A DNA stretch of 24,620 nt, taken from Patescibacteria group bacterium (lineage in GTDB: Bacteria > Patescibacteriota > Minisyncoccia > UBA6257). The stretch lies in NCBI GenBank assembly GCA_022705545.1, contig JAKJEG010000001.1, positions 1-24,620 of the forward strand, in the 5' to 3' direction. The position numbers were made by a program, and so were the translations under genes. Below the pieces are notes generated by a model. It saw only the letters and a list, made by a program, of their open reading frames with translations, did not search any database and was not told the origin of the DNA. Every line of letters begins with the position of its first letter. Position 1 is the first letter of the stretch. Shown here one piece after another: positions 346 through 22,241 of the stretch.

Positions 346-2736
346 ATGTCCAAAAAAATTAAAAAAATTCTATTAATCATTTTTGGTCTCATCATCGCTG
401 CTGGGGCTGTTTTGGGCATTTTAATTTTAGTCTATTCAAAAGATTTACCCGATCCGGCTAGTTTAGATTCTCGAATTGTTTCCCAATCCACAAAAATTTA
501 TGATCGGAAAGGTACAACCCTGTTATACGAAATCTATGAAGGGGAAAAAAGAACTTTGGTCAAGTTAGAAGATATTTCTCCTTATGTTATTAAATCTGCT
601 TTGGCAGCTGAAGACCATCGTTTTTATGAACACCATGGTTTTGTTCTTCAAAGTATGATTCGGGCCTTTTTCAAAACACTCCAAAACCCCCAAAATCCCC
701 AAGGTGGCTCAACTATTACTCAGCAATTAGCTCGAAATGCTTTTTTAACTTTGGATCAAACTATTCCTCGAAAAATCAAAGAAGCAATTTTAACTTTCCA
801 GATAGAAAGAAACTATTCCAAGGACCAAATTATGGAAATGTATTTAAACCAAATTAATTTTGGTTATAATGTTTATGGTATCGAAAGTGCCAGCCAATTT
901 TATTTTAATAAATCTGCTAAGGATTTATCCTTAGCAGAAGCTGCTTATTTAATGGCCATTGTTAATGCTCCTGGATATTTTTCTCCTTTTGGTTCGCATC
1001 GCGATGAATTAGAAGATAGAAAAAATTGGATCTTAGACAGAATGGTTCAATTAAATTATTTTTCTCAAGAAGAAATCGAAGCAGCAAAACAAGACTTAGT
1101 TGTTTTTGCTCCTTTAAAAAGTCAATTCCCTGCTCCCCATTTTGTTATGTACGTGAAAGAATTGCTTTCAGAGCAATTTTCTGACGAAGAATTAGCCAAA
1201 GGCGGTTATACCATTATTACGACTTTGGATGTAGATTTACAGAAAATTGCCGAGGAAACAGTCCAAGAATACGGCGATTATAATGAAAAACACGTTGGTG
1301 CCAGAAATATGGCTCTTTTGGCTGAAGATCCAAAAACTGGTCAAATTTTAGCCATGGTTGGTTCTCGGGACTACTGGAATATTGATCAAGAAGGTAATGT
1401 TAATGCGACTCTATCAATTCGTCAACCCGGTTCTTCTTTTAAGCCAATTGTTTATTCGGCTGCTTTTGAAAAAGGATTTTATCCGGAAAGCGTTGTCTTT
1501 GATACGGCTCTTGATGGCCGAGTAGCTAATTTTTCTACTAATCCCAGTAATCCTTATTATGTTAGAAATTATGACGAAAAAACCAGAGGACCAGTCACTT
1601 TACGACAGGCCTTAGCCCAATCTTTAAATATTCCATCAGTTAAAGTCCTCTATTTGGTTGGTGTTGATAACGCTATTCAAATGGCTCAGAGATTTGGTAT
1701 TACTACTTTAATAGAACCGGCTTCTCATTATGGTCTCAGTTTAGTTCTTGGCGGCGGAGGGGTTAAATTAATCGAGATGGTCAATGCCTATTCTGTTTTT
1801 GCTAACGACGGTGTTTCCAAACCTCAATCAGCAATTTTGGAAATTAGAGATGCCCAAGGAAAAGTTATCTCCAGTTATCAAAAAGAAGAAAAACAAATTA
1901 TTAGTTCGCAAATCGCTAGAATGATTACTGACATTTTAAAAGACAATACTTCCCGAGCACCAGCTTTTGGCTGGCAATCTCAATTATATTTTCCTGATTA
2001 TGAAGTAGCAGTCAAAACCGGAACTGATTCTGAGTACCGAGATGCTTGGACTTTAGGCTATACTACTTCTTTGGCTGCCGGAGTTTGGGCCGGCAATAAT
2101 GATCGCTCACCAGTTGCTCCAACTGGCGCTCCGGCTTCCATGGTTGCTGCTCCGGCTTTTCATAAGTTTATGGAAAAAAGTTTTCAACTTTATCCTCCTT
2201 CTTCTTTTGAAAAACCTCTTCCCTATTCCTTAGAAAGCGTTAAAACACCAATGGTCAACGGTCAATATATAGTTGAAAAGCAATACAAAAATAAAAACAC
2301 TAACGAAATTAAAACCGTTAAAGAAGTTCATAATATCCTTTATTATCTTAATCCCCAAGACCCACAATTTTTAAATTGGGAAATCCCCGTTCTTTTGTGG
2401 GCTCAGCTTAATCTTCCTAATTTTTATCAAGAATACAATCAATCTTTGTCACCGGAGTACGAATTAATCCAAGATGAAAATGCTCTTCCAGAATATATTT
2501 ATTTTCCAATCACCATCGAAATTCCTGAGGATCCTCAAAATCCTATTAAACAAGTGAATTTGTATTGCAATAATATTTGGCTTTCTGAAATACAAAAAAT
2601 TAGTCCGAACACGTTTTTTTATCTTTTAAATTCCGATCTTTTAAAAAATAATGAACCTAATGAAATAAAAGTCGAGGTTATTGATAACCTCGACCAAAAA
2701 ACAGAAGCAAAAATAACTATTTTCAAAGCCCTTTAA
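346..2736 (+). CDS. ponA: Class A penicillin-binding protein (GT51 transglycosylase + transpeptidase, C-terminal Ig-like domain)
   Basis: N-terminal TM; EDHRFYEHHG, GGSTITQQLARN, RKIKE, MYLN (GT51); SSFK (SxxK), SLN (SxN), KTGT. ATG at 346 preferred over TTG 322, which lies inside the heptamer repeat. Confidence 0.93.
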   Translation: MSKKIKKILLIIFGLIIAAGAVLGILILVYSKDLPDPASLDSRIVSQSTKIYDRKGTTLLYEIYEGEKRTLVKLEDISPYVIKSALAAEDHRFYEHHGFVLQSMIRAFFKTLQNPQNPQGGSTITQQLARNAFLTLDQTIPRKIKEAILTFQIERNYSKDQIMEMYLNQINFGYNVYGIESASQFYFNKSAKDLSLAEAAYLMAIVNAPGYFSPFGSHRDELEDRKNWILDRMVQLNYFSQEEIEAAKQDLVVFAPLKSQFPAPHFVMYVKELLSEQFSDEELAKGGYTIITTLDVDLQKIAEETVQEYGDYNEKHVGARNMALLAEDPKTGQILAMVGSRDYWNIDQEGNVNATLSIRQPGSSFKPIVYSAAFEKGFYPESVVFDTALDGRVANFSTNPSNPYYVRNYDEKTRGPVTLRQALAQSLNIPSVKVLYLVGVDNAIQMAQRFGITTLIEPASHYGLSLVLGGGGVKLIEMVNAYSVFANDGVSKPQSAILEIRDAQGKVISSYQKEEKQIISSQIARMITDILKDNTSRAPAFGWQSQLYFPDYEVAVKTGTDSEYRDAWTLGYTTSLAAGVWAGNNDRSPVAPTGAPASMVAAPAFHKFMEKSFQLYPPSSFEKPLPYSLESVKTPMVNGQYIVEKQYKNKNTNEIKTVKEVHNILYYLNPQDPQFLNWEIPVLLWAQLNLPNFYQEYNQSLSPEYELIQDENALPEYIYFPITIEIPEDPQNPIKQVNLYCNNIWLSEIQKISPNTFFYLLNSDLLKNNEPNEIKVEVIDNLDQKTEAKITIFKAL

Positions 2737-3014
2737 AGCTGGTAAAAAATCTTTTTAATTTCTAAGCCAAAATTCTTTTTAATTTCGTCTTTGATCTTTT
2801 TTTCCTCAGTTTTAATTTTGGAAGCGATAACTGATTTTTCGCATTTAATTTTTAATTGACTATTTTTAAAATTAACAATCTTGACCTCCCCGTTAAATTG
2901 ATCTTGGAAATATTGATTAAGATTTTTTAAGGCCTTCTGTTGGGAAAAAGCAGCATTTAATCCTTTTTTCCTTAGCCATTTTTCAAGAATTTCATCCAGT
3001 GGTTGAAAACCCAT
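2733..3014 (-). CDS. dciA: DciA/DUF721-like helicase loader (putative)
   Basis: 93 aa basic protein directly downstream of dnaN; KH-like pattern 'LKIKCEKSVIASKIK..EKKIKDEI' resembles DUF721. Shares TTAA stop overlap with the PBP gene. Confidence 0.6.
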   Translation of the reverse strand: MGFQPLDEILEKWLRKKGLNAAFSQQKALKNLNQYFQDQFNGEVKIVNFKNSQLKIKCEKSVIASKIKTEEKKIKDEIKKNFGLEIKKIFYQL

Positions 3015-5844: not shown

Positions 5845-5895
5845 TGTGGATAAAAAGTAATAATTTGTGGATAACTTGTGAAAATCTGTGGAAAA
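5845..5895. promoter_or_regulatory. oriC part 1: four co-oriented DnaA boxes upstream of dnaA
   Basis: TGTGGATAA at 5845 and 5866, TGTGAAAAT at 5877, TGTGGAAAA at 5887 (spacings 21, 11, 10 bp). Confidence 0.85.
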
Positions 5896-7718: not shown

Positions 7719-7756
7719 AAGAGGTATATTTATATTTAAGAGGTATATTTATATTT
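7719..7756 (+). repeat. Perfect 19-bp tandem duplication
   Basis: AAGAGGTATATTTATATTT twice, between the convergent stops of jag and the pilin-like gene. Confidence 0.95.
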
Positions 7757-9242
7757 AACCGCCAGCGCAAGACCAGCAATAATTATTAGATGGGCAAGCA
7801 TATTGTGAAGCAGGTACAACGTGGAAACCAGAACCGTATTGAGGACATAGATATTCATCTAAAACATTTAATCCTACTTGGTTAGCTTTCTTTTTGAAAT
7901 TATTTCTTTTTGCTTCGCCGGGATCTCCGCCATATCCAATATCAACACAGGTACCATTAAGATGACATTCATCAAGGTGGTCTATAGTTGTTTTGCACTG
8001 ATTGGTGTTAATAATGCTTACACAAGCTTCGGTTACCTTCCAACCGTCATTAAGAATGATAGCTAATTGGGCTAATTTGTCGGCAGTATTTTTATCAATA
8101 TAAGCACCATTAGGAAATTCATCAGACATTGGAATTCCATTATAGGGCGGTTGAGCACCGTGACCAATTCGAATAAAATTGGCAATTTGTTGTGCTCCAG
8201 ATACAGGTAGTTGCGGACTGGTTGGTTGGCCAGTTGAAGGTTGCTGGCCAGTTGAAGGAGTTCCTCCTTCTCCTAACTTTGGGCTAGAACTCAAAATATC
8301 AGGATTAATCGTATTTAAAATAATGTAGAAACCAAATAGCAAGAAGAAACCAATCACTGCATCAATCATTCTTTGCTGGGCATCTTTTTGTTGTTTGGGA
8401 TTACCGCTGGAAGTGGCATAAAGAATGCCAGCATAAACAAAAGAAATAAACATTATTAACCCTGAAATTCTTAACATCCATTTAACAAAACCACCAACTA
8501 ATTGAGCCAAAACATCACTTCCCGGATAAAAAATAGTTGGTTCTTCTGCTTTAGCAAAGAATGGTAAACCTACTTCCCAAGTATAGGAACCAAAAGAAGG
8601 CTGGTCAATCTTAGTGTTAGGACTATATTGAGTTTGAGGATAAGAAAACGAAACAGGAGGTCCACCACAAACAGTATGATCAGTTGCTCTTTCATAAGGG
8701 TCTATGGGGAAGGCTAGACATTCTTCGTCATCTTGGCAAAGGAAGGGAAGAGGATAACACTTGCAGCGGCATTTTTGAATGAAACCAATAGGTTCATCAA
8801 CAGCGCTCCCGCCACTTTGAATTCTTTGATCCAATTCTTCTAAGGTTTCCATCTGACAGCAGCAAAATGGTTTTAAACATCCACCGGTTGAAGAATTAGA
8901 ATGGTCGTTTTTATTGCAGCAGAATGGTTTGCCTGCTTCTGGCTCACTAGTTGGCTGGGATTCTTCTGATGACCCCGAAGGTTTAGAGGGTTTTGAGGGC
9001 TTTGAGTCAGATTCTGATTCAGATTCTGACTCAGAATCTTCTGGTTGTTGATAAGGACACGCTCCTCCTGAACATCCAGAAGAAGGTTCTGCTTCGTTTG
9101 ATTCCTCGGGCTGTTGTTGATAAGGGCACGCTCCGCCGGGACAATCACTAAATACTTTTTTAACCCCAAAGAAATTTATTGTTGCCAAACTGACAATAAA
9201 AACAATTATTAAAAGGACTAAATTTTTATTGTTAAATTTCAT
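7755..9242 (-). CDS. Secreted Cys-rich protein with TrbC/VirB2-like pilin hairpin and C-terminal M15-like (HxxGxxxD...H) domain
   Basis: Signal peptide; 24 Cys; 'ISGLIMFISFVYAGILYATSSGNPKQQKDAQQRMIDAVIGFFLLFGFYIILNTINPDIL' fits the CPR VirB2-like pilin pattern; C-terminal VTEA...CHLNGTCVD...FHV. Confidence 0.7.
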   Translation of the reverse strand: MKFNNKNLVLLIIVFIVSLATINFFGVKKVFSDCPGGACPYQQQPEESNEAEPSSGCSGGACPYQQPEDSESESESESDSKPSKPSKPSGSSEESQPTSEPEAGKPFCCNKNDHSNSSTGGCLKPFCCCQMETLEELDQRIQSGGSAVDEPIGFIQKCRCKCYPLPFLCQDDEECLAFPIDPYERATDHTVCGGPPVSFSYPQTQYSPNTKIDQPSFGSYTWEVGLPFFAKAEEPTIFYPGSDVLAQLVGGFVKWMLRISGLIMFISFVYAGILYATSSGNPKQQKDAQQRMIDAVIGFFLLFGFYIILNTINPDILSSSPKLGEGGTPSTGQQPSTGQPTSPQLPVSGAQQIANFIRIGHGAQPPYNGIPMSDEFPNGAYIDKNTADKLAQLAIILNDGWKVTEACVSIINTNQCKTTIDHLDECHLNGTCVDIGYGGDPGEAKRNNFKKKANQVGLNVLDEYLCPQYGSGFHVVPASQYACPSNNYCWSCAGG

Positions 9243-9248
9243 ACCATT

Positions 9249-11051
9249 CTAAGTGTTTTCTAATTTTGCCTTTTCTTCTTTAATAGCCATCAATTGAGCT
9301 GGATTAGAGGTAATTATTTGATCTTCTGCATAAGAAGCAATAATTTGAATAGCCGCGTGCTGGTTTTGGGCTAGAAAAAGACCAGTGCCAACACTTGTTT
9401 GCAGCAATAAAGCTTTTTCTTGGTCAGTCAAATTAAAGGCCTGACCTAAATTTTCAATATTGGCTGGGGATTGCCTTAAAAGGAGTCCTAAAGAAGAATT
9501 AGTAATAATTGGTTTACCATAAGGAGAACTTAAAGCGTCTTCCACATCTTGGCTGATAAAAGTAATTCCTAAATAATATTTTCTGGCTCTTTTTACCAAA
9601 CTAAAAAGGAAAGAAGCACTTTCTTCATGGGCTAATAACCACCAACCTTCATCAATAGTCACTATTCTTTTTTTAATATCTTTTTTTATCGCTGTCCAAA
9701 TATAATTTAAAATAACATACATCGCAATCGGTCTTAAGGCTTCTTCTAACTCTCTAATGCCAAAAACTACTAATCGATTAGAAAGGTCAATATTTGACGG
9801 TTGATTAAGAAAACCGGCAAAGCTCCCTTTGGTATATTGATATAATTTAGCTGCTAAATCCTCACCTCCTTCAATATTTTTTAAAATACTCTCTAAATCT
9901 TCCATCAAAGGCGGTTTATGAGGTTCATTTAAATTATGAGGAAAAATGTCTCTTAAGGCATAGGTTTCAGTTAATGCTCTATCTAAAATTATTTCTTCTC
10001 GGGGGTTTAATCCTCCAACTAATAATTTAATTAAACTAATAAGGGTGAGAATATGAGAACGAAAAACTTCTTCGGGAGATTCATCTTCCCCTACTTTGGG
10101 AAAATCAAAAGGATTGATATTGTCTTCTGAGGCAACAGCAATTTTATAAAAACTGCCTCCCAATGATTCAGCAAAATACTGATATTCGTTTTCCGGGTCA
10201 ATGATAATGACATCTGTGCCAAATAGCAAAGAGCGAAGAATTTCTAACTTTACAGCATAACTTTTTCCGGCTCCGGTTTGGGCAAAAACAACCATATTAG
10301 CATTAGGCAGGGAAAAGCGATCAAAAATAACCAAACTATTATTATGCTGATTAATTCCATAAAGAATGCCTTTGTTTTGAGAAAGGTCTAAGGAAGAAAA
10401 AGGAAAAATGGTAGAAGCCGGTTGAGAGTTCAAAGGAGTGGTTAAAAGTAATCTATCTAGCCCCAAAGGAAGAGTTGATTCCAGCCCTTCAAATTGACGG
10501 AAAATAGCCGTTTTAGAATAAATTAATTGTTGTTCCAAAATGCTTTTTATTTTTTTCTCTACTTCTTTTAATTCTTCTTGGGAATCAGCAAGAAAGGTAA
10601 TATAAACCCCAACATCAAACATTTTTTCTGCTCCCTGCTGAATTAAATTTCTCAATTCTTCAACATTTTTTAAACCGATTTCTAATAATGGGTTTCTCAC
10701 TAAATTTCTTTCTTGCTCTAAACTAATTTGGGCTTGAATTTCCGCTGATTTTTTTCTTAAATCCCTTAAAACTTTGGTACTATCAACTGGGTGATAGAAA
10801 ACAGAAACGTCAAAGGCTTCATCAATATTAACAACTGATGAAAACCAGTTAATAGCTAAATAATTAGGATAAGTCAAAATAAAAATAGTAGAACAATATT
10901 TACTGCCTAATTTAATAAAAGAAGGATTAATTTGAAGCCCGGCTGGCGCAATAAAGTCCTCGAGGGTGGTAACTGCCTGCTCTCGGGAAATGACTGGCTG
11001 GGAAACATTAATTTTTGATTCTTTTTTAGAGAAAAAAGGAATATTTATCAT
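9249..11051 (-). CDS. virB4: VirB4/TraE-like T4SS ATPase (C-terminal/main part)
   Basis: IFDRFSLPNANMVVFAQTGAGKS (Walker A), IIDPENEY, INPFD, IDEGWWLL (Walker B), RARKY, SQDVED. Confidence 0.9.
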   Translation of the reverse strand: MINIPFFSKKESKINVSQPVISREQAVTTLEDFIAPAGLQINPSFIKLGSKYCSTIFILTYPNYLAINWFSSVVNIDEAFDVSVFYHPVDSTKVLRDLRKKSAEIQAQISLEQERNLVRNPLLEIGLKNVEELRNLIQQGAEKMFDVGVYITFLADSQEELKEVEKKIKSILEQQLIYSKTAIFRQFEGLESTLPLGLDRLLLTTPLNSQPASTIFPFSSLDLSQNKGILYGINQHNNSLVIFDRFSLPNANMVVFAQTGAGKSYAVKLEILRSLLFGTDVIIIDPENEYQYFAESLGGSFYKIAVASEDNINPFDFPKVGEDESPEEVFRSHILTLISLIKLLVGGLNPREEIILDRALTETYALRDIFPHNLNEPHKPPLMEDLESILKNIEGGEDLAAKLYQYTKGSFAGFLNQPSNIDLSNRLVVFGIRELEEALRPIAMYVILNYIWTAIKKDIKKRIVTIDEGWWLLAHEESASFLFSLVKRARKYYLGITFISQDVEDALSSPYGKPIITNSSLGLLLRQSPANIENLGQAFNLTDQEKALLLQTSVGTGLFLAQNQHAAIQIIASYAEDQIITSNPAQLMAIKEEKAKLENT

Positions 11052-11084
11052 TGAGTTTAAAATATATTTTTATTTGATTTCTGA

Positions 11085-11756
11085 TTAAAACGAAAGATCG
11101 GTTTTAAATTCTCGTTCAAATGTTTCTGGGTTGTAAAGATTATAAAGGAGTTCAATAACTTCTTTTGTTGATAAAGCTCTTACTTCTACCCCTATCCTTG
11201 TTAAAGTATTAATAATTATCCCCTGTCTGATTAATAATTGTTGGTAATATTGATTAAACTCTTCGTCAGAAAGAGGTTTAGTGGCGCTAAAGGCCGTAGT
11301 TTTAATTTGAAACATTTCTTTAAAACTTTGAAGCAAATCAGAAAGAAAACTTTTAACCTCGATTTTTACTGGATCATAAGGAACAACCAAAAAGAATTTT
11401 TTAGTCATTATTTTATTCTCGGAAACTAATCCATTAATAAAAGAATAATAATCTTCACCCTGAATTTTTAAGAGTTCGTTAGTTTCTTTTTTAATTCTTT
11501 CTGCTAAAAAGGTTAAATAACTTTCAATATTAACTCTTCGGGAATGGCAGATAACTTCTAAAGGAAAATCAAGGTTATTCAATAAGGTTCTCCAGCCGGT
11601 AAGAATAATATTTTGCTCTTCTAAGGATTTTAAATCCATATTAATACCGGAAACCTGAAGGACCGATCTTAGAGAACCGTTTTTTAGAATAATTATTCCT
11701 CTTCTGATTTCTTTAACTGAAATTAAAGATTGAGTTGTTAAAAAATCTTTAGCCAT
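11085..11756 (-). CDS. TraC-like / VirB4 N-terminal-domain-like T4SS accessory protein
   Basis: TQSLISVKEIRRGIIILKNG..RSVLQVSGINMDLKSLEEQ...YNLYNPE; lies between prgI and virB4, as recalled for CPR T4SS loci. Confidence 0.65.
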   Translation of the reverse strand: MAKDFLTTQSLISVKEIRRGIIILKNGSLRSVLQVSGINMDLKSLEEQNIILTGWRTLLNNLDFPLEVICHSRRVNIESYLTFLAERIKKETNELLKIQGEDYYSFINGLVSENKIMTKKFFLVVPYDPVKIEVKSFLSDLLQSFKEMFQIKTTAFSATKPLSDEEFNQYYQQLLIRQGIIINTLTRIGVEVRALSTKEVIELLYNLYNPETFEREFKTDLSF

Positions 11757-12156
11757 TATTTTGATCTAAATATTGAGCAATTTTTTCTATTGCCTCTTCT
11801 GTTATTTCTTTTTTTATTTCAGGCTTCTCTTCTGGGGTAATTTTTTTTGGGGTTATTGCTTCTTTTTGAGAAACCGTTTTTTCTTTTGACCAGAGATACT
11901 CTTTAGGTACCCATAAATGCCTTAATAAATAAGGAAAAATTTGATACATCGGCATTCCCTCTATCTGGCCAAAAGCCAGTAAAAGAGTTAAAGGCAAACC
12001 GATCACCGCGATAATTACCCAAAAAGTGGGCTCCAAAACAAAGAATAAGCCAATAATAATTCCTCCGCCAACACAGATAATAGTTAACTGGGCAAAAGTT
12101 AAAATGCCCATTATTTTTGTTTCTTCTTTAATAAATTGAGGAACTGGGACTGGCAT
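11749..12156 (-). CDS. prgI: PrgI family (VirB3-like) membrane protein
   Basis: VPQFIKEETKIMGILTFAQL followed by two TMs; 8-nt overlap with the next gene. Confidence 0.8.
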   Translation of the reverse strand: MPVPVPQFIKEETKIMGILTFAQLTIICVGGGIIIGLFFVLEPTFWVIIAVIGLPLTLLLAFGQIEGMPMYQIFPYLLRHLWVPKEYLWSKEKTVSQKEAITPKKITPEEKPEIKKEITEEAIEKIAQYLDQNNG

Positions 12157-12167
12157 AAAATTATTAA

Positions 12168-13196
12168 TTAAGGTTTTTTATCTTTTTGAGGAAACTCTTT
12201 AACTTTGGCGCCAATGATTAAGGGAGGTTCCTCGTTATTCGATTTACTTTGAGGATTTGATTCTTCTTCTGGAATAAATTCTTCATTATTACCAATATTC
12301 AAAATAGCTTCTTCTTTCTTTTCCTCAAAATATTTATATTGAGGAGATATTTTGGTTTCTTTCTGATTGGAAGTTTGATTGACATTTTTTGGGCCCTCTT
12401 TAATTGCTTTTTCTAATTCTTCTTTTACTTTTTCTGAAACGTTCTCCTTTTTTTTACTCATTATTTCTAGAAGTTTTTCCTGAATGTGTTTTTGTTCTTC
12501 TTCAGAGACCGTTGGCGGTTTGGCTCGTTTTAAATCTTTTATTTTATTAAGGGGTTTTTCAAGGGTAATGTGTTGAGGTTCTTTAACAGCAGACACACTT
12601 ACTTCTTCTAAAATATCTGAGGAAGGGGTTAAATTTTTTTGGGATAACAATGGTGAATTCTCTTTCTTTAATGTTTGATTGTTTGGGGGCTGATTTTGAG
12701 GAATGGTTGGTGGAGGTATTGTTTCAGGTTTTTCTGGCTGAATTTCTTCTTTTTCTTTGTTAAGAAACTTTTCAAAAGGATTCGGAGCAACTGGTTGATT
12801 GATTTTTTGTTCAAAGGTTGAATTTTCTGGCTGTTGTTGCTGGAGGGCATCCATGAAAGATGCTGAGATATTATCAGGAGAGGTATATAAAGATAATTCT
12901 TGACTAACCGGAGCAAAAATTTTTTTTCTAATTAAATCCGCTACTATTTGCGCTTGATTTGAAGAGAGAGAAGTTTTATTCAAAATTTCCTTCTCTAGAG
13001 TTTTTTGATCTTTTATCAGCAATAAAATTTCTTCAACTGTTTCCATTATTGGTTCAAAATAATTTTCTATTGGTTCTATCTGGCAGATTTTTAAAATATC
13101 CTCTAAATCTTGACTTAATTGGTTAGAAGATAATAAATCCTGCAAGGAATTTGGCAGTTTATCAAATTTTTCTAAAAAAATTTTTGGATCAACCAT
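12168..13196 (-). CDS. Hypothetical protein, helical N-terminal domain plus long P/Q/E/K-rich disordered tail
   Basis: 342 aa ORF co-oriented inside the T4SS-like operon; low complexity after about residue 105. Confidence 0.7.
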   Translation of the reverse strand: MVDPKIFLEKFDKLPNSLQDLLSSNQLSQDLEDILKICQIEPIENYFEPIMETVEEILLLIKDQKTLEKEILNKTSLSSNQAQIVADLIRKKIFAPVSQELSLYTSPDNISASFMDALQQQQPENSTFEQKINQPVAPNPFEKFLNKEKEEIQPEKPETIPPPTIPQNQPPNNQTLKKENSPLLSQKNLTPSSDILEEVSVSAVKEPQHITLEKPLNKIKDLKRAKPPTVSEEEQKHIQEKLLEIMSKKKENVSEKVKEELEKAIKEGPKNVNQTSNQKETKISPQYKYFEEKKEEAILNIGNNEEFIPEEESNPQSKSNNEEPPLIIGAKVKEFPQKDKKP

Positions 13197-13245
13197 TATA
13201 AGATGATTAAAAATTATTAAATATAATTATTATTTTTAAGGTTTA

Positions 13246-15945
13246 TTAACTCGCTTGCTTCCCTTCTTTTGTTTCTCCTTCTTTTACCGTAAATAAACTA
13301 TTAAGGAACCTATTTCGCAGATATCCTAATCTTCCCATTTCGCTTTGCAATTCTTGCTCCGAAGTAAACCCTTTGGTCTCTATCATTGCCTGTTTAAAGG
13401 TTTGGAGCCATTCATTTCTTTCTTGGGCATTCATTTTTCTAAAAACATCAGCCAAACTTTCTGGATCCATTTTTCTTTGAAGAATCAATTCGTTAAGGGT
13501 TTGATTTAATTGGCCAATATTTTGAAGATTTTTCAAGATATTAGTAATATCCATCTTTTTGATATCTTCTGGAGAGGCCTTTAATAAAGCTTCTTGAGTA
13601 GCATTTCTAATGGCAATTTTACTGGCTTCATCAGCATTCACTTTTTGTTTTTGCATAATTTCTTGAATATCTTTGTTAAATTGATCTGTTTGGACATATT
13701 GACGATAAAGATCTGGTCTATGGTCTTTTAACTCTTTTTTGTTAAAAGCCGGATGATTGACTACTTTTTGAAAAACAGCCATTAGCTCTTCATTAGTAGA
13801 ATCAAGCTTGCCTTTTTCAATTAATTTAGAAAAACCAGCCGCAGCCAAAAACGGATTTTTTCTATTAGCCAAGATATCTCGTTCAATTTGTTCAGCCGTC
13901 ATTTTATCAAATCGGCCACTTAAGGCTTTTTCTCTTTCAGCAGCAACATTTTGGGTTGAGGTCTGCATTTTAAGACCGGTATTATGCAAGGGTCGGAAAC
14001 GAGATTTTTCTAATCTTTCAGCTATCGATTTCCAAGCTTGACCAGTTGTTCCTTGGCCGGCAACTACTCGGGAAGAAAATGCTCCGCCAATCACGCCAGC
14101 TAAACCGCCCATAGCCACAGTGACTACTCCAGAAAGACCAGAAATTATTTTTTCCGTTATTCCTCCTGATTGTTTAATAGAAATTACCAATCCAGCCACT
14201 AAGAACATACTAAAAAGAACTAATTGGATAATTGAAGCTAAGATACCCCCTTGGCTGATTTGACTGACATTTAAAATAGTAATGCCGGTATACAAAAGAA
14301 AGCTAAAGATCACTGGCACTAAACACCATTGAATAAAGAAACTCCACCATTTCCTAAAATAGGAAGCAGTAGCGGGAAATATCCAACTGGCAAAAGTTAA
14401 AGGAGCAACAACTAAAAGAATGCACATCAGAACTGCTCTTAAAATCATGACCAAAAAAGTGGCAAATAAAGTTAAAATGGCAAAAAAGCCGATTAAAATT
14501 AAAGCGATGGCAATTAATAAGAATTTGGCAACATAACCTTGTCGGGCGGCGTAATCAATCACTCCTTCGGTGGTTTCTGATCCGCCAGCTATTTGGGCTA
14601 TGCCTTGATCAAGAAAAGCTGGTGCTGTTGCTTGGTTGTTACTAATGGCAAAACCAAAAGATTTTAATATAGCGAGACCTAAATTAGCATTTTCTCCTTT
14701 GGCGGCGTTTAAGAAATAGAAAGAAAGAAAATTGCTCACGTCAATAACCATTCCCGGAATAATCAAAGAAAAATTAACTAATAAAGCAACCACCACTAAT
14801 TTCCATAAAGTATTTTTCCAGCCCCACTTTTCAATTCTTAACATTGTGGCAACCGCAATAATAATCATTCCGATAATCAAGACTAAATTAACTAAATCCC
14901 GCATAAACGTCCAAACTTCTCTGACTCCGGGATTAGTAGAAAATCCGCCATAGGTTTGAGGATTAATTGCCCACAAAATAGCATTCACTTCTAAATTCAT
15001 AATATAGGAAATAGCCGCGCCAATGCCATCAATTAAAGCATACATTATTTGACAGAAAACTTGAGTAATCCAAGATTCAATTCGGCATTTCCAAAGAGCT
15101 TCGCCGCTCTTACCGCATTCTTCATAATCCTGTTTAGCCATTGCTCGGCAAACAGTTTTTGATTGTGATTCTTGAGCAGTGGATTGAGTTGAAGCAACCG
15201 GTGATGGGGTAATATTTACATCCTCCCCCGAAGTTTCTAATTCTGTTTCTAGAGGATCACAACACGCGTTTAAATTTTTTTGTTGCTCAGAAGTAAGAGT
15301 GCTTAGATTTTTTTGAATTGCTGAAAATGGTTCACAACAAGTATTGTAATAAGAGATAGGGCCGCCGAGAGCTCTTATTTGAGTATTACAATCTCCCAAG
15401 CATTTGTTTATAAACGTTGAAATATCCTCCTTTTCTCCAATAAGATATTTCCCTTCCCCTTGCTCAAATAAATTTTCACTAATTGTATTTTTTAAAGTCC
15501 CACAATCTCCTACGAAACATAAATTGCCATCGATGTTATATGTTTCATCTGGATTTTCAAGACAATAGGCACAACATTGTTCGAATATTTGGTAAGCAAA
15601 AATTTTTGCCTCCTCACTTATAGTAAAACCCTCATAAGCGCTTTTTATTAGCTCTTGATCACATCCCCATTTATAATTAGGGTAATTCTCTGGTTGAGCT
15701 TGTTTGCATAATCTTTCAATTGCGGTCCTTTGATCTGTTGTTAAACCTTTACTGGGAATTGCTGTGCAGCAAACCTCATAATAAGTTTTCGGATATTTTT
15801 CAATTTCTGCCTCTATTCCTTGCCAAGCACATTTTCTATAAAACTCTTCGGCTGTTTCTGCTAAAGCACTTTTTCCAATAAAAAAACTCAAAAAAATTAA
15901 AACACTGATTGATAGAATATTTTTAAAATTTTTTGGGAGTTTCAT
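13246..15945 (-). CDS. virB6: VirB6/TrbL-like polytopic membrane protein with Cys-rich extracellular N-terminus
   Basis: Signal peptide (ALA cleavage); 20 Cys in the first ~300 aa; 'WTFMRDLVNL...LLVNFSL..PGMVIDVSN' and 'LRAVLMCILLVVAPL.F...IFP...YFRKWW' VirB6-type core; helical cytoplasmic C-terminus. Confidence 0.7.
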   Translation of the reverse strand: MKLPKNFKNILSISVLIFLSFFIGKSALAETAEEFYRKCAWQGIEAEIEKYPKTYYEVCCTAIPSKGLTTDQRTAIERLCKQAQPENYPNYKWGCDQELIKSAYEGFTISEEAKIFAYQIFEQCCAYCLENPDETYNIDGNLCFVGDCGTLKNTISENLFEQGEGKYLIGEKEDISTFINKCLGDCNTQIRALGGPISYYNTCCEPFSAIQKNLSTLTSEQQKNLNACCDPLETELETSGEDVNITPSPVASTQSTAQESQSKTVCRAMAKQDYEECGKSGEALWKCRIESWITQVFCQIMYALIDGIGAAISYIMNLEVNAILWAINPQTYGGFSTNPGVREVWTFMRDLVNLVLIIGMIIIAVATMLRIEKWGWKNTLWKLVVVALLVNFSLIIPGMVIDVSNFLSFYFLNAAKGENANLGLAILKSFGFAISNNQATAPAFLDQGIAQIAGGSETTEGVIDYAARQGYVAKFLLIAIALILIGFFAILTLFATFLVMILRAVLMCILLVVAPLTFASWIFPATASYFRKWWSFFIQWCLVPVIFSFLLYTGITILNVSQISQGGILASIIQLVLFSMFLVAGLVISIKQSGGITEKIISGLSGVVTVAMGGLAGVIGGAFSSRVVAGQGTTGQAWKSIAERLEKSRFRPLHNTGLKMQTSTQNVAAEREKALSGRFDKMTAEQIERDILANRKNPFLAAAGFSKLIEKGKLDSTNEELMAVFQKVVNHPAFNKKELKDHRPDLYRQYVQTDQFNKDIQEIMQKQKVNADEASKIAIRNATQEALLKASPEDIKKMDITNILKNLQNIGQLNQTLNELILQRKMDPESLADVFRKMNAQERNEWLQTFKQAMIETKGFTSEQELQSEMGRLGYLRNRFLNSLFTVKEGETKEGKQAS

Positions 15946-15963
15946 GATAGTTGTTATTTTAAT

Positions 15964-15992
15964 ATTATATAAAACTTATTATTAATAATCAA
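15964..15992 (-). promoter_or_regulatory. sigma70-like promoter for the T4SS-like operon
   Basis: TTGATT-17 bp-TATAAT, 18 nt upstream of the virB6 ATG. Confidence 0.6.
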
Positions 15993-16884: not shown

Positions 16885-16906
16885 TGAATAATTGATTTGT
16901 TAGAAT
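16878..16906 (+). promoter_or_regulatory. Near-consensus sigma70 promoter for the LysM-M23 gene, overlapping the rsmA start codon
   Basis: TTGACA-17 bp-TAGAAT with extended -10 TG. Confidence 0.7.
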
Positions 16907-18138
16907 TATCAAAGGGTTTTTTTAACCCTTTTTTAATTAAGATTCTTATTGAGAATACCATTTTTAAGCCCATAAAACAATTTTTTCTTTCTTTTCCCTT
17001 TGGGAAAAAGCAGCAAAAAGGGCAGCCGGCAATAGCCCCTTTGGTTTTATTGTTTATTTTATCCTTGTTGCTGGGAAATTACTATATTTTTTCTTCAGCT
17101 ACTATTGTTAAAGGAAAAGAAATGCCAATAGTTATTCAGGGCAATAAAGAAAATAATGGGGACGGAGATTTTCTAACTAAAAATGCTTTCGCCTATTATG
17201 ATTTGCCTAGAGGAGAGAATATTATTGAAGAAGATGTTCAATCTCAATATCCGGAAGCCGAATTCTTTTTGGTGGTTGATAATGGATTTTTAGCAAAAAA
17301 TGTGGCGGTTCAAGATTATTCTTCAATAACAGCAAGCAGAAAAAATATTATTACTTATATAGTTAAAGAAGGTGATTCTCCATCCAAAATTGCTGCTCAA
17401 TTTGGAGTTAGTTTAAATACAATTTTATGGGCTAATAATTTAAAAAGCGGTTCAGTAATTAAACCGGGTCAGGAATTGCTTATTTTGCCAATTACCGGGG
17501 TTTATCATACGGTTCAAAAAGGAGAAACTTTATCAGCAATTGCTAAAAAATATAGCGTTTCTGTTGGGGAAATCAAAGAATTTAATGAGATAGGCGATAT
17601 TTTAGCTGAAGGAACCCAATTAATTATTCCCAATGGGAAAATGCCAGCCACTCCTTCGACGAAAACTTCAATTAGTTCTAGCGCTTCCAAATCTTCGTCT
17701 GCTAGTACCTCTTTAGCGGCAAAAAATGGTTTAAAGCCAATGACTGAGGATGTTTCTGGTTGGCAAAAGCTAGATAGTTCGTTTTTGTATCCAACTAACG
17801 GTGGCTATAATAAAGGCATTTTACATTATTATAACGCTGTTGATATTATTAATTATTGCGGTTCTCCAATTTACGCTGCTGCTGATGGTTTAATTGTTGA
17901 AGTAAAATCTTCTGGTTATAATAATGGTTATGGTTCTTATGTAAAAATTCAGCATTTTGCTGATTTTAAAAACACGATTACTGTTTATGCCCATTTGGGT
18001 TCAGTTTTGGTGAGTGAAGGGCAAAAAGTTAGCCAAGGAGCATTAATTGGAAAAATGGGTGATACTGGTAATGCTAATGGTTGTCATCTTCATTTTGAAG
18101 TGAGGAATGCTCAGAACCCTTTTGTTTTAAAACAGTAA
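16897..18138 (+). CDS. LysM x2 + M23 peptidase-family cell-wall protein (start codon uncertain, probably downstream of 16913)
   Basis: N-terminal TM; YIVKEGDSPSKIAAQFGVS..TILWAN and HTVQKGETLSAIAKKYSVS (LysM); HYYNAVD, GYGSYVKIQH, YAHL, HLHFEVR (M23). Confidence 0.92.
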   Translation: MLELSKGFFNPFLIKILIENTIFKPIKQFFLSFPFGKKQQKGQPAIAPLVLLFILSLLLGNYYIFSSATIVKGKEMPIVIQGNKENNGDGDFLTKNAFAYYDLPRGENIIEEDVQSQYPEAEFFLVVDNGFLAKNVAVQDYSSITASRKNIITYIVKEGDSPSKIAAQFGVSLNTILWANNLKSGSVIKPGQELLILPITGVYHTVQKGETLSAIAKKYSVSVGEIKEFNEIGDILAEGTQLIIPNGKMPATPSTKTSISSSASKSSSASTSLAAKNGLKPMTEDVSGWQKLDSSFLYPTNGGYNKGILHYYNAVDIINYCGSPIYAAADGLIVEVKSSGYNNGYGSYVKIQHFADFKNTITVYAHLGSVLVSEGQKVSQGALIGKMGDTGNANGCHLHFEVRNAQNPFVLKQ

Positions 18139-19689
18139 TTAAAAATTAGCTAACAAATTTTCAGTTTTATATTGTAAGGCTTCTGAAAGATGCTCTTTTT
18201 TAATTTTCTCTTCTCCTTCTAAATCAGCAATTGTTCGGCTAACTTTTAAAAGACGATGACAAGCCCGGGGAGATAAATAATAATGGTCAATGGCTTTTTT
18301 GAAAGATAATTCAGTTTCTTGGTCCAAAGAACAATATTGGTTAATTTCTTTTAGGCTCATTTCTGAATTGGTAAAAATCTTGTTTGCTTGAAACCTTTGC
18401 TTTTGCCTTTCCCGGGATTCTTTAATTTGATTTTTAATTTTGAAAACAATTTCTTTTTGTTCTTCTTGAGACAAAAATTCTTCGGAGGTTAAACGAAAAA
18501 CATTAATAATAATATCAATTCTATCCAAGAAAGGACCGGAGATTTTCTTTCGGTATCTTAATACATCAATTGGTCGGCAAAGACATTCTTTTTCCGGGTC
18601 ATGAAAATAACCGCAAGGACAGGGATTCATGGCGGAAATAAGAATAAATTTGGCTGGGAATTGCATTCGGGCGTTAGCTCTGGCAATAGAGATCTTTCCT
18701 TCTTCTAGTGGCTGACGAAGTCCTTCTAAAACATCTCTTCTAAATTCTGGTAATTCATCAAGGAATAAAACTCCTCGGTGAGCTAAAGTTATTTCTCCGG
18801 GTTGGGGAATCACGCCGCCGCCAAGAAGAGCCACGCTGGAAGAGCTATGATGGGGTTGGCGAAAAGGAGGAGAAGTGATAATCGGATTATTATGATCTAA
18901 TAAACCGGCAATACTATAAATTTTAGTTACCTCTAGTGATTCTTCCTGATTTAAAGGCGGCAAAAGAGAATGGAAGGCTTTGGCTAATAAGGTTTTGCCT
19001 GAACCCGGTGGCCCAACCATCAAAACATTATGAGCGCCAGCAGCAGCAATAGTCAATGCTCTTTTGGCTTTCTCCTGACCCTTAATTAAAGAAAAATCTC
19101 CCAAAGAATTATCTTCTTGGAGATTTTTTAGATGAGGTAAAGAAGGAGCAATTCGAGTGTTGCCGTTTAAATAACTAGTTACTTCTTTTAAATTATTTAA
19201 ACCAATTAATTTTAAATGATAGTTATTTTTTAAAGCGGCGGTTGCTTCTTTTAAATTTCCTCTGGGAAGAAAAAGCTCTTGAAAATTATTTTCTTGGGCA
19301 AAAAGAGTAATTGGTAAAACTCCATTAACTGGTCGTAATTCACCATTCAAAGTTAATTCACCAATAAAAAGTTTTTTCTCCGTCACAAATGACTTTAGTT
19401 GACCGGAAGCAACAAGATAGCCAATAGCCATAGCGAGATCGTAATGAGAACCAGTTTTTTTAAAATCGGCTGGAGCTAAATTAATAGTAATTTTTTTATT
19501 AGCTCTTAAAGGAGATTTCGCCCCAATGTTTTTAATGGCAGCTGAAATTCTTTGTTTAGCTTCTTTAATGGCTAAATCTGGTAGACCAACAATATTAAAA
19601 GCATGAAGACCATTAGAAACATCAACTTCAACAGACACTAATAAATTATCTAAACCAAAAAAAGCGGCGGAATAAATTTTAGCAAACAT
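18139..19689 (-). CDS. comM: ComM/YifB Mg-chelatase-like AAA+ helicase
   Basis: VGLPDLAIKEA, GPPGSGKT, FRQPHHS, PGEITLAHRGVLFLDELPEF, MNPCPCG, ISGPFLDRID, KVSRTIADL. Confidence 0.95.
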   Translation of the reverse strand: MFAKIYSAAFFGLDNLLVSVEVDVSNGLHAFNIVGLPDLAIKEAKQRISAAIKNIGAKSPLRANKKITINLAPADFKKTGSHYDLAMAIGYLVASGQLKSFVTEKKLFIGELTLNGELRPVNGVLPITLFAQENNFQELFLPRGNLKEATAALKNNYHLKLIGLNNLKEVTSYLNGNTRIAPSLPHLKNLQEDNSLGDFSLIKGQEKAKRALTIAAAGAHNVLMVGPPGSGKTLLAKAFHSLLPPLNQEESLEVTKIYSIAGLLDHNNPIITSPPFRQPHHSSSSVALLGGGVIPQPGEITLAHRGVLFLDELPEFRRDVLEGLRQPLEEGKISIARANARMQFPAKFILISAMNPCPCGYFHDPEKECLCRPIDVLRYRKKISGPFLDRIDIIINVFRLTSEEFLSQEEQKEIVFKIKNQIKESRERQKQRFQANKIFTNSEMSLKEINQYCSLDQETELSFKKAIDHYYLSPRACHRLLKVSRTIADLEGEEKIKKEHLSEALQYKTENLLANF

Positions 19690-19833: not shown

Positions 19834-20205
19834 TTAGGTCATTTTTTGGTTGGAACATTTCATGCAGAATCGAGCTGCTGGATTAGCTTTTAATCGGGCA
19901 ATTTCTATTTTTTGATGGCAATTTTCGCATTCGCCATACTGACCATTTTCTATTTTTTCTAAAGCATCATTAACGTCTTTTAAACGTAATTCTAATGAAT
20001 GCTCTAAAGCCAAAAGAGTCTCATATTGCTCTACTTCTTCAGCATCCTCGTCAGGAGCAGAAGACCTTTCTAAGTATGGAAAACGAGTATCATAATCGTC
20101 AGGAATTTTTTTGTCTTTATCAGCAAATTTTAAAAGATCCTTTTTTAAAAGGTCTTTTTCCTCGAGTAATTTCTTTTTAAGCTCTTGAATTAACTGTTTT
20201 TCCAT
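19834..20205 (-). CDS. dksA: TraR/DksA family C4 zinc-finger protein
   Basis: Coiled coil followed by YGECENCHQKIEIARLKANPAARFCMKC; acidic tip PDEDAEE is not the canonical DxxDxA. Confidence 0.85.
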   Translation of the reverse strand: MEKQLIQELKKKLLEEKDLLKKDLLKFADKDKKIPDDYDTRFPYLERSSAPDEDAEEVEQYETLLALEHSLELRLKDVNDALEKIENGQYGECENCHQKIEIARLKANPAARFCMKCSNQKMT

Positions 20206-20786: not shown

Positions 20787-22241
20787 TCACAGTTTTATTT
20801 TTACTGAAGCTGCTTGTTTAGCGGTTTTGTTAGCCCATTCTATTCCCTGAATAATGATTATGGCGCAAAGCATTACCCAAGACAAACCGGTTAAAATTAA
20901 ACCCGATTTTAATAAGCTTTCTTTAGCTTTTTCAGTGGCTTTTTTCACTTCTTCTTTTTTTTCTGGCTCAGTTGATTCAGTAATTTTTTCAATATCTTTT
21001 TTAAAATTATTCAAAATCTCATTAAGTTTTTCCCGACTCTGGGGATTTTCTAAAATTTTTGTTATTTTTTTAATAAATTCCGGATCTGAGCCAATAGCTT
21101 GGTTAAACAATTCAAAAACTGTTTTGCTAGATATGCCTTCTAAAGCTGATTCTTCCGGAGTAATTTTTTCAATATCAACCCCAAAGTTTTTGATTATTTC
21201 TTGAGCTTTTTTGTCTTTGTCTTTTACATCAACAAAATTAATCAAATCTTTCTCGATATTATTTTTCAGCGCTTCATTTTGAATATTACTATCAATTAAT
21301 TCTTTTAAGTTTTGGTAGCTAACTCCTTTTAAAGAAAGAATATCAAAACAAGCCTGATAGCCATTTTCACTAAAAACCGGGGAGATATTTTTTTCTTTTA
21401 ATTGATTTAATAATTCTTGATCGTCTTTGATATTTTCAAAGGGATTTTTATCTTTTAGCCAACGATTAATAAACTTAACTACTATTTCTGTTTTTTCTTT
21501 TTCCGGAATTGGTCTTAAAGTTTCCTCGTCAAACCATTTATTTTCTACGCTGTTACTCATTAATAAAGCTGTTTTTATTGCCTGCTGGTTAAAATTAGCT
21601 AGATTCTTTAAATTATTGTCTTCGATAATTTTTATTTTTTTCTCTTCTTCGGTTTTTGGCTCTTTCTTTATCGTATTAAAATCTACTTCTTTTAATTCTT
21701 TTTGCCAAAGATTAAAACATTTATCAAAAAGACTGGTCCTTTCTTCTTTATCAGCGAAGAAAATCTGATCTTCTAAACAAACATTCACTAAGTTGGAAAG
21801 AATTGCTGTTTTTTTACTTTCTTCAACGATGATATCTTTAGTTAATTCTTTTTTTTCTTTAAAACCGGGTTCATCTTTTTCTAGTTCTTTGAAAACATTG
21901 TCAATAATTTCCTTGTTCTTTTTTTTGGCTTGTTTTTCTTCAAGGTTTTTTGATTCTTTTAATAAATCTAAATAAAAAGTTAGCCTTTCTTGAGGGTTTT
22001 TAATTTCTTTTACCAATAAATATTTATCCTCAAATTTTTTGAGGTTTTCTTTTTGTTGTTCTTTTTCCTGTTTTTCTTCCGGACTGATAATCTTTTCTTT
22101 TTTTGTTTTTTTGGCCTCTTTTCTTTCTGATTCCAATTGTTGTTCTGGATTTTGTTGTTCCTCTTGTTCTTCTGAAGTTTTTTGTTGTTCTGGCCATTCT
22201 CCTGGAGGATAATAGCCAAAATCTCCTTTAAACTGAATCAT
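20787..22241 (-). CDS. Hypothetical E/K-rich coiled-coil protein with a single C-terminal TM
   Basis: 484 aa, highly charged; hydrophobic segment GLILTGLSWVMLCAIIIIQGI near the C-terminus. Confidence 0.75.
   Translation of the reverse strand: MIQFKGDFGYYPPGEWPEQQKTSEEQEEQQNPEQQLESERKEAKKTKKEKIISPEEKQEKEQQKENLKKFEDKYLLVKEIKNPQERLTFYLDLLKESKNLEEKQAKKKNKEIIDNVFKELEKDEPGFKEKKELTKDIIVEESKKTAILSNLVNVCLEDQIFFADKEERTSLFDKCFNLWQKELKEVDFNTIKKEPKTEEEKKIKIIEDNNLKNLANFNQQAIKTALLMSNSVENKWFDEETLRPIPEKEKTEIVVKFINRWLKDKNPFENIKDDQELLNQLKEKNISPVFSENGYQACFDILSLKGVSYQNLKELIDSNIQNEALKNNIEKDLINFVDVKDKDKKAQEIIKNFGVDIEKITPEESALEGISSKTVFELFNQAIGSDPEFIKKITKILENPQSREKLNEILNNFKKDIEKITESTEPEKKEEVKKATEKAKESLLKSGLILTGLSWVMLCAIIIIQGIEWANKTAKQAASVKIKL

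Follow-up and report, generated by a model that had tools for sequence, protein, structure and literature searches.

A Patescibacteria-type type IV secretion locus beside a likely chromosomal origin, with a predicted LAS-like domain on its pilin protein

We analyzed a 24,620-nt stretch of DNA (the window) from a Patescibacteria group bacterium, which carries at 7755-15945, on the minus strand, a compact cluster of type IV secretion system (T4SS) genes. We put at about 0.55 the probability that this cluster is a chromosomal, vertically inherited Patescibacteria T4SS of a Paceibacteria/Parcubacteria-type genome, descended from monoderm conjugation machinery whose DNA-processing half was lost; that a LAS-like domain of its pilin protein lies outside the cell and acts on peptidoglycan; and that the machine serves contact and traffic with a host. 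The finding of such a T4SS, including its origin-side position and the idea of import, is already in print in two reports (PMC10633639, PMC12102498).

Six genes around a split VirB4 motor

The cluster consists of six open reading frames (ORFs), all on the minus strand, which in order of transcription encode proteins of 899, 342, 135, 223, 600 and 495 aa and are spaced by 49, 11, -8, 33 and 6 nt. This layout bears out the original prediction, made from the sequence of the window, of six co-oriented genes with gaps of 6-49 nt or overlap. The same prediction described a minimal VirB6-VirB3-VirB4-VirB2 set behind one predicted promoter. Those four components are present, but the description omits a TrsD-like protein, an unnamed 342-aa protein (p342) and an enzyme-like domain on the pilin protein. 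The promoter-like motif is real (TTGATT-17-TATAAT, 15964-15992, minus strand), a consensus match that ends 19 nt before the start codon of the VirB6-like gene, but such sites are no commoner than in shuffled sequence: 37 were found between 7000 and 17000, compared with 36.2 ± 4.9 in the shuffles.

The 600-aa VirB4 ATPase (9249-11051) scores above the cut-off of the NCBIfam model NF045971 for the CD1110 family (370.5 bits, cut-off 325) and also matches PF19044, PF12846, PF01935 and PF03135. Its Walker A and Walker B motifs are intact: residues G260, G262, K263 and S264, together with D467 and E468, are invariant in 27 aligned homologues. Ending 33 nt upstream is the gene of the 223-aa TrsD-like protein (11085-11756; NF041427 TrsD/TraD, E = 1.1e-9). 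This protein aligns to positions 2-145 of the 752-position CD1110 VirB4 model and to positions 103-255 of a mycoplasma VirB4 model. In the former model, the 600-aa protein covers positions 172-729. Because the shorter protein covers the N-terminal part of the model and the longer one the remainder, we read VirB4 as split in two genes, with its N-terminal domain made as a separate polypeptide.

The related loci with which we compared the window (numbered with L) came from a scan of one genome per species, in which 594 of 600 pattern matches encoded relatives; the best 80 were kept. Genes in these loci were counted by single-sequence phmmer, and counts over the 80 loci are lower bounds because many loci are cut by contig ends. 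TrsD was detected in 79 of the 80 and is separate from VirB4 in 77 of those 79. In monoderm plasmids, the match of the window's TrsD-like protein is the ORF immediately before VirB4 in three cases and the N-terminal part of an unsplit VirB4 in two; a TrsD-like gene precedes a short VirB4 in plasmids of Pontibacillus, Miltoncostaea and Embleya. Since three plasmids show this order, the split motor is not peculiar to Patescibacteria. Two related loci, L004 (9353-11725) and L017, have TrsD and VirB4 in one ORF of 791 and 770 aa, respectively, from stop to stop, which may reflect a true fusion or an effect of assembly.

Two membrane proteins accompany the motor. The PrgI family protein (11749-12156), a VirB3-like membrane anchor of 135 aa whose gene overlaps that of the TrsD-like protein by 8 nt, matches PF12666 (E = 2.3e-9, 38.1 bits; gathering threshold (GA) 27), contains one long hydrophobic stretch at residues 15-67, and recurs in at least 64 of the 80 related loci. 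The VirB6/TrbL-like protein (13246-15945) is a polytopic membrane protein of 899 aa. Hydropathy and composition divide it into a signal or transmembrane (TM) segment (residues 6-29), a Cys-rich domain on the outside that extends to about residue 340, a region of TM-like segments (about 344-625) and a hydrophilic tail at the C terminus (about 640-899). It has 22 cysteines in all. It matches PF04610 with E = 8.1e-5 and 22.9 bits, below the GA of 25.9, and no NCBIfam model at E≤0.01. PF04610 is matched at E≤0.01 by 16 of 33 aligned homologues (best 5.5e-9), and the assignment to VirB6/TrbL is therefore credible at the family level. The TM core recurs in at least 51 of the 80 loci; the N-terminal region had no phmmer match in any of them.

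Between these two genes lies that of p342 (12168-13196), a conserved, cytoplasmic protein whose gene neighbours prgI. The protein has no membrane segment: an all-helical N-domain of about 90-110 residues is followed by a low-complexity tail rich in E, K, P and Q. Neither Pfam nor NCBIfam assigned p342 to a family, and Pfam assigned none to 33 members of the N-domain group. A hidden Markov model (HMM) iterated from the first 115 residues retrieved 37 ORFs in 34 of the 80 loci, 32 of which end about 0.5-1.7 kb upstream of the VirB4 start, directly before prgI. The AlphaFold2 model of the N-domain is a helical bundle (pLDDT 90.9), whose best Foldseek match among solved structures in the PDB reached only E = 1.1 (probability 0.09); in the Atlas, only unnamed clusters of Minisyncoccota were retrieved (0.86-0.87). 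DUF5663 was considered as a relative and rejected (hhalign probability 0.8%). The main texts of PMC12102498 and PMC10633639, their supplements aside, make no mention of this N-domain. Our guess is that p342 sits at the cytoplasmic face of the motor.

The pilin protein and its C-terminal domain

The last gene of the cluster, which starts 6 nt after the end of virB4, encodes the 495-aa pilin protein (7755-9242). PF18895 (T4SS_pilin) matches residues 242-311 (E = 8.4e-8, 32.6 bits, GA 26.6). The protein is composed of a signal peptide, a Cys-rich N-terminal region of about 210 residues, a VirB2-like hairpin (residues ~242-314; 8301-8519) with TM-like segments at 248-277 and 290-314, a linker rich in Pro, Ser, Thr and Gln, and a C-terminal domain of about 140 residues (residues ~355-495; 7758-8180), hereafter the C-domain. 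The hairpin is the only pilin domain in the window, as judged with an HMM from 125 ORFs of 45 loci applied to window ORFs of at least 35 aa. Among the related loci it was detected in at least 42 of 80 by phmmer and in 45 by the iterated pilin HMM.

The C-domain belongs to a small group of proteins. Among 1.84 billion representative proteins only 17 relatives were found at E≤0.001, and in 13 of these PF18895 lies just upstream of the domain; the remaining four are short. Residues C426, H427, G430, C432 and D434 are invariant in all 18 sequences, forming an Hx6D motif, and a later histidine, H474, is present in 16 of 17. The metal motif of LAS (M15-like) enzymes is H-x6-D with a downstream His. 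H427, D434 and H474 are putative metal ligands on the basis of this pattern. E405 and E463 are also conserved, and could substitute for the catalytic residue that LAS enzymes have near the last ligand (HxH or ExxH).

The AlphaFold2 model of the C-domain (pLDDT 88.6, pTM 0.83) retrieved from the PDB, by Foldseek, only VanXY, VanY, LdcB and Hedgehog structures among the top 49 matches listed. The best match was VanXYc (E = 0.012, probability 0.94-0.97); LdcB, VanXYg and VanY were also retrieved, and Hedgehog N-domains matched with a TM-score of about 0.5. In the viral library BFVD the top matches were M15 peptidases, D-Ala-D-Ala carboxypeptidases and endolysins. In a search of the Atlas, rank 14 (score 0.89) went to a cluster that is 11% Peptidase_M15_3, which we take as a lead only. 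We thus predict a LAS-type (Hedgehog/DD-peptidase) fold for the C-domain. With the LAS zinc peptidases (VanX/VanY/LdcB, M15, Hedgehog N) it has in common the Hx6D motif with a later His, and its predicted fold finds this group, at weak scores, at the top of both structure libraries; it differs from them in giving no sequence-profile match, in an extra Cys pair (C426/C432), in a Gly at the first position of the HxH motif in the subgroup of the window, and in being joined to a T4SS pilin hairpin (13 of 17 relatives). No PDB sequence matched the C-domain directly, and its alignment profile gave only chance-level hits against the PDB. A kinship with the pilin extension in L038, which matches M15 weakly, was tried and rejected: hhalign joined only the hairpins and not the C-terminal domains.

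Long extensions after the pilin hairpin also occur in related loci. Of the 125 pilin ORFs found there, 97 extend fewer than 40 residues beyond the hairpin and 24, spread over 18 loci, extend 80 or more; Saccharimonadia-type loci with an array of short pilins contain none of the 24. Thirty pilin ORFs are 250 aa or longer. Pfam was run on 23 of these, the other seven, minus-strand ORFs spanning several pilins, being left out. It recognised Peptidase_M23 behind the hairpin twice (E = 7e-11 and 2.4e-33), SLT once (8.5e-6, passing the cut-off) and Peptidase_M15 once (sub-threshold); relaxed scans of the extensions alone added further sub-threshold matches to Peptidase_M15_4, SLT and VanY. In one cluster of four extensions, two carry the classical HY.G.AID motif. 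The C-domain type of the window occurs also in L002, L003 and L077. The pilin core (residues 236-320) retrieved only two near-identical proteins in a word-index search, which was thus of no use for counting architectures. Pilin-hydrolase fusions are not mentioned in the main texts of PMC12102498 and PMC10633639, supplements aside, nor did literature searches bring up a mention of them.

Long pilin-domain ORFs can also stand in series: L010 (3650-9935) has four in a row, of 383-491 aa, one of them with M23, and L031 (12295-18674) has three, one of 1,223 aa with 68 cysteines after the hairpin.

The N-terminal part of the pilin protein (8520-9242) contains the motif C(P/S)GGACPY twice, an acidic and Ser-rich linker, a Cys-rich region and the sequence YTWEVGLP at residues 220-227; it had no phmmer homologue in the 80 loci. 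The duplicated motif is encoded by a 31-nt repeat at 9044-9143 on the minus strand, with copies 69 nt apart and 87% identical. In L001 (4587-5981) and L002 (4701-5966) two extra genes stand between virB4 and the pilin gene, one for a membrane protein of 117-150 aa and one for a Cys-rich secreted protein of about 300 aa that ends in Y.WE.G.PGF. The window lacks the 117-150-aa gene, and in it the Cys-rich part with YTWEVGLP is fused ahead of the pilin hairpin. Motifs of this type precede the hairpin in many relatives and may mark a processing site.

Descent and chromosomal setting

T4SSs of this kind have been surveyed across the phylum. A search of 3,035 Patescibacteria genomes (Quinonero-Coronel 2025, PMC12102498) described a monophyletic patescibacterial VirB4 clade nested in MPF_FATA, with genes for TrsD, PrgI/VirB3, VirB6 and a VirB2-like protein (PF18895) widespread near virB4. 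In Paceibacteria and Microgenomatia, virB4 lies near dnaA, dnaN, rnpA, ksgA and rpmH, which was read as a gene-dosage effect (PMC12102498). With this phylum-wide class, and with the locus SEML1_0006-0019 of Southlakia epibionticum, the window shares the VirB4 group, the adjacent TrsD, PrgI/VirB3, VirB6 and PF18895 pilin, the absence of a nearby relaxase or coupling protein, and the site beside dnaA, dnaN, rnpA, rpmH and ksgA, as far as its 24.6 kb extend. It differs in that its operon has no separate hydrolase gene, and from Saccharimonadia-type loci with 4-7 short pilins in that it has one long, LAS-fused pilin.

The setting is conserved among the related loci. Over the 80 loci phmmer detected dnaA and dnaN in at least 35 each, yidC in at least 25 and ksgA in at least 16. 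The full order, PBP1-dnaN-dnaA-rnpA-yidC-jag, then pilin-VirB4-TrsD-PrgI-p342-VirB6, then ksgA, recurs in seven (L003, L004, L009, L023, L058, L074 and L077), and VirB4 identity in synteny-sharing loci is 47-75%. Among 31 taxa (the window and the 30 loci holding all three genes), pairwise identities of VirB4 correlated with those of DnaA (Pearson 0.61; Mantel test, 0 of 999 permutations as high) and of DnaN (0.855). In most pairings with the window, the conservation of VirB4 equalled or exceeded that of DnaA. This correlation fits vertical descent without proving it, because the shared ancestry of the rows inflates such values.

In sequence databases, the best 120 relatives of VirB4 are 54-100% identical to it, and the named organisms among them are all Paceibacterota, Parcubacteria, Patescibacteria or Minisyncoccia. 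A comparison with 72,556 plasmids gave best matches of 28.6-32.1% identity, from Actinomycetota and Bacillota; most of these carry an annotation as CD1110-family VirB4. The original prediction had called for a VirB4 phylogeny. In a midpoint-rooted FastTree of 86 rows, 80 patescibacterial sequences (79 loci and the window) separate from six monoderm plasmid rows with a branch support of 98, and the VirB4 of the window joins L001-L003 with a support of 100. These six rows, the best tblastn matches, are the only outgroups; the tree holds no Ced, ComB or diderm sequences. Some record titles do not fit (among them those of L025, L026, L029, L030, L033, L034, L041 and L060): contigs whose VirB4 and synteny are of patescibacterial type are entered as Gammaproteobacteria, Nanoarchaeia or Clostridiales, and several Parcubacteria-type loci as Saccharibacteria. 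These titles are probably automatic labels or binning errors.

One plasmid relative, L081, encodes an NlpC/P60 hydrolase right after an unsplit VirB4, together with PrgI, VirD4, a relaxase and MobC; another carries a type IV coupling protein (T4CP). A cell-wall hydrolase gene lies directly after virB4 in the plasmid relatives. The MPF_FATA plasmids and integrative conjugative elements of monoderms (pGO1 Trs, pCF10 Prg) share with the window the CD1110-type VirB4, PrgI, a TrsD-like gene and the slot for a wall hydrolase after virB4. In contrast to these systems, the VirB4 of the window is only 29-32% identical to those of the plasmids, there is no MobC, relaxase, VirD4 or T4CP in the 24.6 kb, and the cluster has a PF18895 pilin with the hydrolase-like domain fused to it. 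Monoderm MPF_FATA plasmid systems are described as having no VirB2-type pilin (PMC12102498, PMC12857230).

The original prediction placed the cluster among core genes, beside oriC, in a window without VirD4, VirB11, relaxase, integrase or att repeats. Core genes do enclose it. On the pilin side lie genes for a class A penicillin-binding protein (PBP) and DciA, then dnaN, dnaA, rpmH, rnpA, yidC and jag/KhpB, with rpmH-rnpA-yidC-jag nearest the cluster; on the VirB6 side lie ksgA, an M23-LysM peptidase gene, comM/YifB and dksA. Among the 21 large ORFs of the window (Pfam on all, NCBIfam on 10) none matched the VirD4/TcpA, VirB11, relaxase or integrase families, and a repeat search of the window detected no direct or att-like repeats bracketing the cluster. 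The composition of the six genes is not anomalous: GC content at third codon positions is 0.22-0.28, as in the flanks (0.18-0.28). The placement beside oriC depends on three DnaA boxes 21 bp apart at 5845-5895, two of them perfect TTATCCACA and one with a single mismatch. These boxes lie between dnaA and rpmH; the operon of the cluster is transcribed towards them, and its end is some 1.9 kb distant. The whole window contains 12 DnaA-box matches compared with 6.2 expected, a number reached in 3 of 100 shuffles; GC skew was uninformative on the location of the origin. This group of boxes is the likely origin region, to judge from sequence.

If replication starts at these boxes, the 8.2-kb T4SS operon would run head-on to the departing fork, and rpmH-rnpA-yidC-jag and dnaA-dnaN point away from them. 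This relative orientation is kept in the seven loci with the full gene order. The published gene-dosage idea leaves it unaddressed.

Several neighbouring genes deserve mention. The DciA gene (2733-3014, minus strand) follows dnaN and overlaps the end of the convergent PBP gene by 4 nt, an order also present in L001 and L003. A membrane-anchored LysM-LysM-M23 peptidase (16897-18138, plus strand) is encoded divergently from ksgA, one gene away from the T4SS, and has a homologue within 10 kb of virB4 in 9 of the 80 loci; it may act in cell division or as a VirB1-like helper. M23 and LysM domains also occur in VirB1 homologues mentioned in PMC12102498. Further out are comM/YifB (18139-19689, minus strand; TIGR00368, 565 bits), which 5 of 80 loci have near virB4, and a gene for a DksA/TraR zinc-finger protein (19834-20205, minus strand), which 4 of 80 have there. 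Two likely surface proteins follow, both on the minus strand: a 484-aa protein of no family with a C-terminal membrane segment (20787-22241), and a DUF11-repeat protein (23323-24603) that extends past the end of the window. Rfam detected three tRNAs only in the window.

Mechanism, alternatives and implications

How might these parts work together? We propose that PrgI and the TrsD-like protein hold a VirB4 hexamer at the VirB6 channel, as would be expected from VirB-type systems, and that VirB4 pulls the pilin hairpin out of the membrane and polymerises it or positions it on the cell surface. Because the loop between the two helices is basic, both ends of the hairpin would face outwards by the positive-inside rule, placing the LAS-type domain outside the cell. 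There it would cut, or at least bind, the peptide stems of peptidoglycan. The fused domain would then fill the role of a VirB1/PrgK-type hydrolase, opening the cell's own wall and plausibly that of the host cell. We read it as a wall-opening activity because the gene slot after virB4 holds a hydrolase in the monoderm conjugative relatives. The machine would most likely serve host contact and the traffic of host-derived material rather than conjugation, which is made unlikely by the absence of a coupling protein and a relaxase from the window.

Several observations weigh against this picture. The fold matches of the C-domain are weak (0 of 216 in the PDB and 0 of 309 in BFVD at E≤0.001), and no peptidase HMM matches it: Pfam at E≤10 gives only a chance-level GH97. 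At position 472, two residues before the last ligand, the window and four relatives (5 of 17) have Gly, whereas 11 of 17 have His (HxH). Because of these weak scores and this Gly, the domain may bind rather than cut peptidoglycan, and it could be a binding module rather than an enzyme. Of the 24 long extensions in related loci, 10 match no hydrolase family and cluster with none that does. About 180 extra residues per subunit may block polymerisation, and the protein could be a membrane-anchored hydrolase, with a plain pilin encoded elsewhere in the genome. The VirB6-like protein of the window itself falls under the Pfam cut-off. Finally, a coupling protein may be encoded outside the 24.6 kb; such proteins are common in Patescibacteria and lie far from virB4 (PMC12102498).

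A more specific proposal, which we consider less likely than not, is that in Paceibacteria-type systems the T4SS pilin is itself the tool that breaches the wall, its hairpin having been fused repeatedly and independently to murein hydrolase domains from no fewer than three unrelated families (M23, SLT and LAS/M15-like), and that the N-domain of p342, a conserved cytoplasmic protein specific to the phylum, replaces the coupling protein at the motor. In that case a VirB4-driven surface structure would present peptidoglycan-cutting enzymes to the wall of the host, opening a site for feeding or contact.

The original prediction favoured a DNA-import or host-contact machine resembling archaeal Ced or Helicobacter ComB. 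A T4SS turned inward, taking up host or environmental DNA for nucleotides or recombination, seems to us improbable, and the likeness is one of analogy. Ced and the locus are both reduced T4SSs without a relaxase for which import has been proposed; Helicobacter ComB is a T4SS without VirD4 or VirB11 that is used for uptake. T4SSs that import DNA are likewise not known to have a coupling protein or relaxase, and the window has neither. Furthermore, comM/YifB lies 2.2 kb from the cluster and near it in 5 of 80 loci, but it is a widespread core gene. Membership in either family is contradicted by the scores. The VirB4 of the window reaches 39.8 bits on the CedB model NF041017 (cut-off 700) and 16.3 on CedD (cut-off 600), the pilin protein matches no Ced model in NCBIfam, and gene set and ancestry differ. 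On VirB4_CagE (TIGR00929), the subfamily to which ComB4 presumably belongs, it reaches 113 bits (cut-off 643), and Pfam found among the window ORFs no homologue of VirB7, VirB8, VirB9 or VirB10, components that ComB, a diderm VirB-type system, would have. Import of DNA or other macromolecules from the host is proposed in PMC12102498. In S. epibionticum, however, DNA uptake depends on comEC and type IV pili; deletion of comEC abolishes competence and leaves the cells viable, whereas the T4SS is essential (2025 review, PMC12857230). Because competence can be lost without loss of viability, the essential role of the T4SS is not ordinary transformation.

Transposon sequencing had shown the T4SS genes and the pilin array of S. 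epibionticum to be essential for growth on the host, with no recognisable coupling or relaxase proteins in that T4SS (Wang 2023, PMC10633639); our literature search found no experimental study beyond this one. A passage in the same report lends support to another role, the delivery of effector proteins that would enter the host bacterium or attach to its surface and manipulate or harm it, as does the existence of T4SSs that export proteins without a coupling protein (Ptl, Brucella VirB; PMC12102498), and the hydrolase-like domain on the pilin could be the delivered activity. Nevertheless, the window encodes no candidate effector, chaperone or coupling protein, and a Sec-exported substrate would already be outside the cell in a monoderm; we consider export of effectors unlikely. 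Less probable still is a system that is still conjugative or mobilising, with its coupling protein, relaxase and oriT elsewhere in the genome. VirB4 does exceed the cut-off of a conjugative-family model, and 5,713 VirD4 homologues, of which only 148 lie near virB4, occur in 2,918 Patescibacteria genomes, along with 109 relaxases in 103 genomes (PMC12102498). On the other side stand the conserved chromosomal site, the co-divergence with DnaA and DnaN, and the lack of an integrase or bracketing repeats in the window. Relaxases are rare in the phylum (103 of 3,035 genomes), and in S. epibionticum a distant t4cp homologue is non-essential whereas the T4SS genes are essential (PMC12102498). The view of the original prediction that the locus is domesticated and non-conjugative is thus supported by synteny, by the co-divergence of VirB4 with DnaA and DnaN, by flank-like composition, and by the absence of relaxase, coupling protein and integrase from the window.

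In kind, the system of the window is not new. Its pilin-hydrolase architecture and the conserved p342 subunit are modest leads that offer a handle on mechanism beyond the published text considered here. Patescibacteria, which live on other cells, account for a large part of the bacteria that have not been cultivated, and few envelope machines are conserved among them. The T4SS is one of these, and it is essential in the single species in which this was tested.

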